A DNA stretch of 64,000 nt from Escherichia coli (GTDB taxonomy: Bacteria > Pseudomonadota > Gammaproteobacteria > Enterobacterales > Enterobacteriaceae), in the NCBI RefSeq assembly GCF_046105845.1, contig NZ_CP151004.1. One strand, written 5' to 3'. Below the pieces are notes generated by a model, which saw nothing but the letters and a program-made list of their open reading frames with translations, was not told where the DNA came from and searched no databases. Of this stretch, positions 47,071 through 47,305 are shown piece after piece; position 1 is the first letter of the stretch; each line of letters begins with the position of its first letter. The position numbers and the translations under genes were made by a program.

Positions 47071-47305
47071 ACTGCCGCAGGGAGCGCGCAGGGGGCGGCC
47101 AATCGCCGCCGCCCCCTGCACCCCCAGGCTCTGGCGAACAAAATCGCCGCTGCGCGGTTCCCTCAGCTTATCCCTTGCGGCTACCGGGTCGGGCGCAAGG
47201 GAACGTCCCTGTAAGATGCGCCCTCGCCGCGCATCCATGCGCGTCGCCCCGGCCTCCAGGGAACGCTTCGGCGATTTTGACGCCACCAACACCCGTGCGG
47301 TCTTT
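47071..47305. repeat. GC-rich ~235-bp imperfect palindrome in the sstT-alx spacer (unclassified intergenic element)
   Basis: Nested inverted repeats: CAGGGGGCGGC/GCCGCCCCCTG, CCCTTGCG/CGCAAGGG, CGCGCAT/ATGCGCG, CAAAATCGCCG (~47150) / CGGCGATTTTG (~47270); flanks are AT-rich. Confidence 0.5.

Follow-up and report, generated by a model that had tools for sequence, protein, structure and literature searches.

The closest described relatives of the element treated here are the TRIP1 repeats of Escherichia coli and the RRS, the "replication risk sequences". The TRIP1 family was first published by Rudd (1999), and it was described further by Li et al. (2024, Genes 15:236; PMC10888264), who recorded 156 rearrangements between TRIP1 copies. 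The same study introduced a new type, TRIP1d, which has a length of 264 bp, lies 96 bp downstream of the alx stop codon as well as 255 bp upstream of the sstT start, and was found in 1565 of 6725 genomes (23%) (PMC10888264). The TRIP1 copies of K-12 were renamed RRS (Pham et al., 2023, 2024). The RRS have been described as 222 bp long (Pham et al.), and it was stated by Pham et al. (2024; PMC11194060) that RRS are TRIP1.

The experimentally studied RRS are the K-12 copies at lysO (TRIP1a) and at dusC (TRIP1c) (Pham et al.). The strand that contains the sequence GGGGGTGCAGGGGGCGGCGG, which is quoted as the G-quadruplex (G4) motif of the RRS, stops Pol I as well as Pol II and Pol IV in vitro, and in vivo it slows Pol III (PMC11194060). 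With this strand as the template for lagging-strand synthesis, RecA and SSB accumulate along about 2 kb of ssDNA on the lagging strand, and such an accumulation also occurs at engineered ectopic RRS sites, while inverted copies give no RecA/SSB peak in vivo (Pham et al.). It was impossible to delete both K-12 copies without compensating amplification, at least one copy is conditionally essential, and RRS deletion or inversion alters genome-wide supercoiling (Pham et al.). Single-molecule experiments in vitro with the C-rich strand as lagging-strand template revealed gaps in about 66% of encounters, with a size of about 325 nt (Kusi-Appauh et al., 2026 preprint). In recent work the RRS family has been presented as a new class of genomic signal, characterized by programmed transient replication gaps and effects on chromosome topology.

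The window analyzed here comprises 64,000 nt of the E. coli contig NZ_CP151004.1. An initial annotation, which had been made from the letters of the sequence, had pointed to a GC-rich imperfect palindrome of about 235 bp in the otherwise AT-rich spacer between sstT and alx. The difference in composition was confirmed, the GC content being 67–69% within the element (about 47050–47300) and 34–38% in the flanks. The segment turned out to be the TRIP1d copy of the E. coli repeat TRIP1, and thus of the RRS. The element is therefore real, but it is already known, down to its location between alx and sstT. With the sstT start codon ending at 46779 and alx reaching down to 47395 as its lowest base, the published distances predict a unit at 47035–47298; the alignments ended at 47035 and at 47301–47303. 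The complete unit was assigned to 47035–47303 by BLAST and MAFFT comparison with 17 other Escherichia copies, which have constant ends at unit positions 1 and 267/269. A length of 267–269 bp thus results from the present alignments, compared with the published 264 bp, and of the original description the element itself stood while its boundaries did not, because the unit reaches about 36 bp further to the left.

Over the full unit, TRIP1d was found to share 87.6–90.6% identity with other copies in the lysO-aqpZ and yohP-dusC spacers; among them, TRIP1a of K-12 is 87.6% identical over 267 nt and a K-12-like TRIP1c is 87.9% identical over 272 nt. The homology to TRIP1/RRS thus extends over the full length. 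A core at 47073–47293 is common to Klebsiella copies and is the counterpart of the RRS of 222 bp described by Pham et al.; it was defined by blastn against plasmid-labelled Klebsiella records, which matched query positions 39–259 with 78–82% identity. The unit is flanked by two allele-specific junctions, neither of which occurs in the K-12, B2 and E. whittamii alleles. The first (46962–47034) leads from the conserved sstT upstream region to the unit, and its approximately 27 nt adjoining the unit show a weak likeness among copies in the alignment. The second (47304–47394) leads from the unit to the alx stop codon and is common to Escherichia sp. MOD1-EC7003. As a whole, it is considered likely that the alx-sstT element, a TRIP1d copy that belongs with the K-12 RRS to one family, acts as DNA and not as a gene.

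The suggestion that the segment belongs to a dispersed intergenic repeat family was borne out. Of 5426 complete E. coli genomes, 5425 contained TRIP1 matches in a megablast search with positions 47061–47315 as query, at one to five places per genome (median: three); over this interval the copy of strain 1190 is 100% identical. The places lie in a few intergenic spacers, namely sstT-alx, yohP-dusC and lysO-aqpZ. The alx-sstT locus is occupied in 1668 of the 5426 genomes (31%), while the other 69% are devoid of TRIP1d, and the K-12 and B2 alleles of the spacer contain unrelated sequence instead, so that the comparison of strains revealed a presence/absence polymorphism. In all three spacers, yohP-dusC, lysO-aqpZ and sstT-alx, copies with unrelated junctions occur in either orientation, the inverted sstT-alx copy being that of E. 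whittamii. Outside of Escherichia, 13 TRIP1 places were found in one chromosome-sized record of Klebsiella pneumoniae, and copies sampled from several Klebsiella records sit at unrelated loci. An exact 19-mer scan of 100,044 species genomes, a method that is blind to copies differing within the 19-mer, yielded real matches only in Escherichia and in two contigs labelled otherwise, which look like Escherichia contamination; about 25 further matches in other phyla had lengths of 19–23 nt only. The six aligned Klebsiella copies differ from the 19-mer, at least by CAG/CGG for CTG and by GCTG for GCCG. A phage collection searched with the element contained no match.

This distribution is the basis of the most serious rival explanation, i.e., that TRIP1d is a spreading or recombining repeat without a function at sstT-alx, a neutral passenger with the provision of homology for rearrangements as its main effect. 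According to this explanation, the unit with its short variable junctions entered a few permissive intergenic spacers by insertion or copying. The presence/absence polymorphism, the unrelated sequence in alleles lacking TRIP1d, the occurrence of both orientations with unrelated junctions in the three spacers, the many unrelated Klebsiella loci, and also the 156 rearrangements between copies (Li et al.; PMC10888264) all speak in its favor. Nevertheless, typical traces of a mobile element are missing. Among the 21 inverted pairs listed, none joins about 47035 with about 47303, so terminal inverted repeats of the kind found in MITEs do not link the unit ends, no target-site duplication is evident in the aligned flanks of independent loci, and no transposase is associated with the unit. 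In addition, the K-12 copies have strong experimental phenotypes (Pham et al.), and both sequence and fold are strongly conserved (see below). For the TRIP1d copy a neutral spreading repeat is therefore regarded as possible, though rather unlikely. It would be compatible with a replication-linked activity of the family and with functional copies at lysO and dusC.

The stems of the element were localized with a repeat search, and all four that had been named in the initial annotation were present at their places. A single long palindrome was not found, instead the imperfect palindrome corresponds to a branched multi-helix fold. The left end of the unit is closed by a terminal helix (47038–47087, pair I15) formed by GCGCTCC at 47038–47044 and GGAGCGC at 47081–47087, which is helix 12 of the consensus fold and is kept in Klebsiella. 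It is followed by a perfect 12-bp GC hairpin (47088–47119, pair I3) with the arms GCAGGGGGCGGC (47088–47099) and GCCGCCCCCTGC (47108–47119), which overlaps the G4 motif. A long closing stem (47139–47279, pair I1) surrounds two inner hairpins; its arms CAAAATCGCCG and CGGCGATTTTG (47139–47154 and 47264–47279) are separated by 109 nt. As helix 3 of the consensus fold it is 100% paired in 17 copies, and its changes from C-G to U-G are limited to the G-rich strand. One of the hairpins (47225–47246, pair I7) has an invariant ATCCAT loop, which reads ATGGAT on the minus strand, and consists of a 10-nt pair (47225–47234/47237–47246) that is 90% complementary and contains CGCGCAT/ATGCGCG. A perfect 9-nt pair, TCCCTTGCG/CGCAAGGGA, connects 47171–47179 with 47194–47202. 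This 8/9-bp stem with CCCTTGCG is indeed present, but it is specific to the TRIP1d copy and lies outside of the consensus fold of the family. The C-rich strand contains four G-tracts (GGCTACCGGGTCGGGCGCAAGGG, 47180–47202, plus strand), a pattern match from a regular-expression scan, and this motif was found in 22 of 23 Escherichia and Klebsiella copies.

The folding of both strands of the unit as ssDNA was then compared with that of shuffled sequences. The minus strand reached –85.3 kcal/mol (shuffled: –61.5; z = –6.45) and the plus strand –78.0 kcal/mol (shuffled: –55.2; z = –6.38), and none of 200 shuffles folded as well as the TRIP1d unit. The stability of the fold is thus well beyond chance on either strand, with z about –6.4. 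TRIP1d therefore also shares with TRIP1/RRS the GC-rich unit in an AT-rich spacer with a very stable branched fold, for which a consensus of 78 pairs was obtained.

This consensus was calculated with RNAalifold from an alignment of 17 Escherichia copies. Standard pairs were found in 98.9% of its cells, compared with 97.0% after shuffling, and the observed value was not reached by any of 500 shuffles. When the partners were slid by one to three columns, pairing fell to 41–49%. Seven of the 78 pairs were changed on both sides, and 22 cells with both-sided changes were observed while 4.5 were expected (0 of 500 shuffles). Four of these seven compensated pairs set the TRIP1d type apart from all other types: three in the hairpin with the ATGGAT loop (helix 7) and one in the next helix. 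After the addition of six Klebsiella copies (78–82% identity), 13 of 83 pairs were changed on both sides, including one further pair in the helix 7 hairpin. In the G4-overlapping hairpin of 12–13 bp the number of compensated positions rose from two within Escherichia to four across Escherichia and Klebsiella. Examples are TGCA...GCGC in Escherichia versus TACA...GTGC in Klebsiella, CAGAGGG/CCCTCTG in K. aerogenes, and GGAGGA/TCCTCC in some Escherichia. Due to these four positions it can be stated that, besides the G-tracts, pairing is conserved at the published "G4 site".

Taken together, compensatory changes in both genera, Escherichia and Klebsiella, keep the multi-helix fold intact, with the G4 motif included. 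The element is multi-copy and has a conserved structure in two genera. The compensatory changes between genera argue for selection on the fold itself, which stands against the neutral spreading repeat. As read from the alignments, they show selection for a fold of a single strand, and they would look the same for ssDNA and for RNA. Among one-sided changes at pairs predicted on both strands, the ratio of G-T/G-U to A-C was 6:1 for the G-rich strand, and the consensus energy was –119.5 kcal/mol for the G-rich and –105.2 kcal/mol for the C-rich strand. The 6:1 bias leans to the G-rich strand, but it is not significant and fits G-T pairs of ssDNA equally well.

The strand bias and the energy difference are two of the arguments for another explanation, i.e., that the G-rich (minus) strand gives rise to a structured RNA, for instance as the alx transcript's 3′ end, which would be a relative of the TwoAYGGAY RNA (RF01731) and would bind CsrA or a similar protein with its hairpin loops CAUGGAUG and UUACAGGGACGU. 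CsrA binding has been proposed for TwoAYGGAY (literature on TwoAYGGAY). TRIP1d is co-oriented with alx and begins 91–96 nt past its stop codon. In a search with 451 nt the minus strand yielded, as the only Rfam match, a full-length one to RF01731 with 33.1 bits (E = 0.0017), in which the closing stem was aligned together with two hairpins and one AUGGAU loop. Other E. coli copies scored similarly with 28–37 bits, likewise over the full length. The long P1 stem that closes two hairpins, as described in the Weinberg supplement, is present in the form of helices 2 and 3, with 22 pairs that are 100% paired. Furthermore, the Psychromonas seed members of TwoAYGGAY are also multi-copy, with the loops CAUGGAUG and UACAGGGACGUA.

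However, all scores (33.1 bits for TRIP1d, 28.4–36.6 bits for the other E. coli copies) are below the gathering threshold of 43, and the six Klebsiella homologues gave no TwoAYGGAY match at E ≤ 1. The GC hairpin in one Klebsiella homologue matched a microRNA family with 34.7 bits on both strands, and a chance match of this size means that Rfam scores of such size are uninformative here. The two AYGGAY loops were not found either: the first loop is AUGGAU, while the second is AGGGAC in TRIP1d and AGGGAU in most other copies. A scan for promoters and terminators revealed no site in or at the unit. The orientation relative to the flanking genes varies, and in K-12 TRIP1a the G-rich strand is antisense to both aqpZ and lysO. 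In the K-12 CsrA CLIP-seq gene table the rows of dusC and ybjE contain only "No", which probably stands for no binding; as gene rows read apart from their column headers and from intergenic peaks, they are only weak negative evidence. Membership in TwoAYGGAY was therefore rejected, in view of the Klebsiella homologues and the chance microRNA match of the same size, and the sub-threshold match is probably due to chance. The idea of a structured small RNA, which had been put forward earlier, lost its support through the missing promoter and terminator, the flipping orientation, and the sub-threshold Rfam match, and it is now regarded as improbable.

It is even somewhat less probable that TRIP1/RRS and the orphan TwoAYGGAY RNA are the same kind of element. 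If they were, either the RRS would also be expressed as a GGA-loop RNA that binds CsrA-type proteins, or TwoAYGGAY would in reality be DNA, both of which share this low probability. In the latter case, the TwoAYGGAY motifs of gut Clostridia and Psychromonas would fold during replication, and in both cases the functional unit would be the conserved multi-helix fold and not the G4 alone.

A large terminator or insulator had also been considered, which would keep alx transcription out of the sstT promoter. The location of the unit, with the alx stop codon on one side and the conserved sstT upstream region on the other, speaks for this role, as do its very stable hairpins and the T-run that the TRIP1d copy has at 47301–47307 on the plus strand. 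But alx is encoded on the minus strand, and for its transcripts this T-run is at the upstream end of the unit; it is thus on the wrong strand for alx termination. The T-run is present as had been noted, but it is missing from the other copies. No terminator-like site was called in the region 46700–47500 outside of the alx coding region, and hence an intrinsic terminator was not detected, the only T-run being on the plus strand and unconserved. In most strains the spacer contains unrelated sequence, and members of the family lie in both orientations beside unrelated genes. A terminator or insulator function is therefore not supported and is judged very improbable.

Both strands of the element contain open reading frames of about 100 codons, which the initial annotation had dismissed as artefacts of GC composition. 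This view was corroborated by a comparison of the frames among the homologues. The frame on the minus strand (46984–47292, 102 codons) is annotated as "hypothetical protein" WP_001441093.1 in strain GB089 and others, and a gene for a small protein of about 100 amino acids would thus be a further explanation for the element. Apart from the window copy, just one other copy (L039) keeps this frame open, while all others contain stops or frameshifts, including L041, which is also of the TRIP1d type. On the plus strand (47036–47311, 91 codons) the window copy alone lacks in-frame stops, and the frame is broken by stops or frameshifts in all others; five of these (L003, L014, L008, L041, and L030) shift the reading frame after small indels, and the latter two gain a stop in addition. 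Of the variable sites, 16 of 71 on the minus and 18 of 75 on the plus strand are third codon positions, so that changes are not concentrated at third positions, and the substitutions that are present are paired across helices. Neither frame is therefore regarded as a gene; the coding explanation was rejected, and its probability is practically nil.

The preferred reading, a DNA element of the RRS type, leads to the question of its orientation during replication; a DNA structure coupled to replication, the published function, had not been considered in the initial annotation. The published G4 motif GGGGGTGCAGGGGGCGGCGG has a single exact match in the window, at 47106–47125 on the minus strand (0 matches in 100 shuffles), and is thus restricted to one strand of the element, as in TRIP1/RRS. 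Chi sites (14:7) and KOPS (5:1) are more frequent on the plus than on the minus strand of the window, and the GC skew is +0.0155; the leading strand is therefore the plus strand, with the minus strand as its template. Synteny places the plus strand of the window on the K-12 bottom strand at about 3.24 Mb. The gene rnpB lies on the plus strand of the window, and we take it to lie on the K-12 bottom strand, which would also equate these two strands. The G4 strand of TRIP1d is thus the leading-strand template and the C-rich strand the lagging-strand template, the reverse of the K-12 RRS pair. In agreement with this, a K-12-type TRIP1c on the same replichore has the opposite orientation to TRIP1d. 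The position differs as well, because TRIP1d, at about 3.24 Mb, is about 1.66 Mb away from dif in K-12 coordinates, while the studied RRS pair, at 0.915 and 2.229 Mb, lies at roughly 650 kb. TRIP1d thus lacks the position and orientation of the K-12 pair, features that describe the studied pair and not membership in the family.

With the unit, the identical G4 20-mer, and the fold of the RRS, TRIP1d might act as follows. Upon unwinding of the duplex both strands would fold, each into a branched structure of high stability, and a G-quadruplex could additionally arise at GGGGGTGCAGGGGGCGGCGG in the G-rich strand. Where the lagging-strand template is folded, the polymerase would be blocked, re-start downstream and leave a transient single-stranded gap that binds SSB and RecA; the bound gap has been proposed to relieve topological stress. 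As the G4 is on the leading-strand template, the triggering of gaps by TRIP1d should be weak, and judged from its orientation it should be at most a weak gap trigger. TRIP1d would then be a supernumerary, reverse-oriented RRS that may cause at most weaker and rarer lagging-strand gaps via its C-rich strand, and it may also be a substrate for homologous recombination with other copies. In view of the missing RecA/SSB peak at inverted RRS copies in vivo, TRIP1d may even do nothing at the replication fork. Its large distance from the Ter-flanking positions, on which the idea of a "topological relief valve" rests, counts against that role. In addition, the occupation of the same spacers in either orientation (also reported by Li et al.) is a poor fit to a strictly orientation-dependent function, and a spreading repeat fits this observation at least as well.

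TRIP1d is thus a natural third or fourth RRS, which lies outside of the Ter-flanking positions, is reversed, and occurs in only about 30% of E. coli. It is well suited for testing the natural role of position and orientation, and for testing whether function or spread is responsible for the upkeep of the family. The present analysis adds to the published descriptions the corrected ends of the unit, the covariation that supports the fold as a whole and also in its G4 region, the placement of the G4 on the template of the leading strand at alx-sstT, the rejection of the open reading frames and of TwoAYGGAY membership, and the inverted copy in the sstT-alx spacer of E. whittamii. The compensatory evolution through the G4 motif and the three spacers with either orientation both bear on the published G4-centred model; they are small increments to known biology and do not reveal a new kind of system.

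REP/BIME elements are, like TRIP1, GC-rich, palindromic, intergenic, and multi-copy, and often lie just past stop codons, but REP units have only about 35 bp, occur in hundreds of copies, and have no sequence similarity to TRIP1; the REP-derived naRNA4 of Rfam matched the flanks of other loci, never the TRIP1 unit. The TwoAYGGAY RNA (RF01731) shares the long closing stem around two hairpins, the GGA-containing loops, and the multi-copy occurrence in some genomes, yet its members are AT-rich and lack the G4 motif, so the likeness is a resemblance only. According to the RRS authors, the pilE G4 of Neisseria gonorrhoeae is the only other known bacterial G-quadruplex that triggers programmed gaps. 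By its description it is set apart from TRIP1d, being a short G4 of unrelated sequence that is tied to pilin antigenic variation. The pilE-associated G4 has a length of 16 nt. Much closer are the RRS (Pham et al., NAR 2023, 2024; Kusi-Appauh et al., 2026 preprint): TRIP1d is homologous to RRS-lysO and RRS-dusC, its G4 20-mer is identical and its fold alike, whereas it is situated about 1.66 Mb from dif in K-12 coordinates, has its G4 in the template of the leading strand, and occurs in only about 30% of strains. The closest system is TRIP1 itself (Rudd, 1999; Li et al., 2024), with which sequence family, length, GC content, the predicted "double-Y" fold, and the locus all agree. There is no essential difference to the description of Li et al. 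(2024), the frequencies of 23% and 31% referring to all genomes and to complete genomes, respectively. Their study did not include an analysis of strand, covariation, or replication orientation, and it reported TRIP1d in one orientation only, while an inverted copy was found here in E. whittamii.

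The TRIP1 unit, the dispersed GC-rich folding repeat that is also named replication risk sequence (RRS), was found in either orientation at three spacers, namely sstT-alx, yohP-dusC and lysO-aqpZ, when the copy of Escherichia whittamii is included. In the yohP-dusC spacer, the repeat unit was the sole sequence common to the two orientation alleles (L002:2917-3290 versus L004:2910-3297), and the same was observed for lysO-aqpZ, where locus L003 was compared with the K-12 locus L049 and with L014. At both sites the entire spacer differed between the stop codons or terminators of the opposite-orientation alleles, and therefore these alleles are not simple inversions.

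TRIP1d, the sstT-alx copy of the window, has been reported in a single orientation only (Li et al., PMC10888264). The E. whittamii copy in this spacer (L030:5193-5460) was inverted relative to the window copy, and its junctions matched neither of the two that flank the unit in the window (46962-47034 and 47304-47394). K-12 (L005:860-1060) and a B2 strain (L006) carried sstT-alx alleles devoid of TRIP1d. At its position they had another palindromic repeat that is rich in GC, GGGGAGAGGGTTAGGGTGAGGGG ... CCCTCACCCCGACCCTCTCCC, and that was about 75 bp longer in K-12 than in the B2 strain.

Incomplete units were also observed. In TRIP1b, the copy in the K-12 putP-efeU spacer (L048:556-697), unit positions 1-85 and 214-267 were present and positions 86-213 were missing; therefore, it has neither of the inner hairpins, and the first G-run of the G4 motif is absent as well. 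The 243-kb E. coli plasmid record NZ_CP194962.1 contained only unit part 1-85. TRIP1-like copies with 78-82% identity to the unit were detected in plasmid-labelled records of Klebsiella pneumoniae and K. aerogenes (L050-L055), at unrelated loci with sitD, pcaC, dmlA-caiT, rimO and a GH31 gene as neighbours. On their G-rich strand, these copies began at the 5' end with an additional conserved stretch of about 35 nt, and one chromosome-sized Klebsiella record had 13 TRIP1-like places. In Klebsiella the family resembles a dispersed repeat more than a terminus-flanking pair.

Several other elements were noted. Near yohD, matches to the REP-derived naRNA4 (RF02564) scored 49.8 bits (L002:239-316) and 59.3 bits (L004:5898-5975), both just under the gathering score of 59.5; they are ordinary REP/BIME elements without relation to TRIP1. 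RNase P RNA (rnpB; 318.6 bits) was located at window positions 16599-16975 on the plus strand, inside a region (about 12000-24000) that has a low GC content (44-46%) and a high GC skew, unlike the remaining window. The alx leader (48361-48640, minus strand), which is described as a pH-responsive or yybP-ykoY-type element, matched no Rfam family, whether gathering thresholds or a cutoff of E <= 1 were applied, and this may be a filter miss.

The plus, C-rich strand of TRIP1d contains a run of four G-tracts, GGCTACCGGGTCGGGCGCAAGGG (window 47180-47202), which by pattern matching alone was conserved in 22 of the 23 Escherichia and Klebsiella copies. This run might be related to the separate polymerase block that has been reported on the RRS-C strand.
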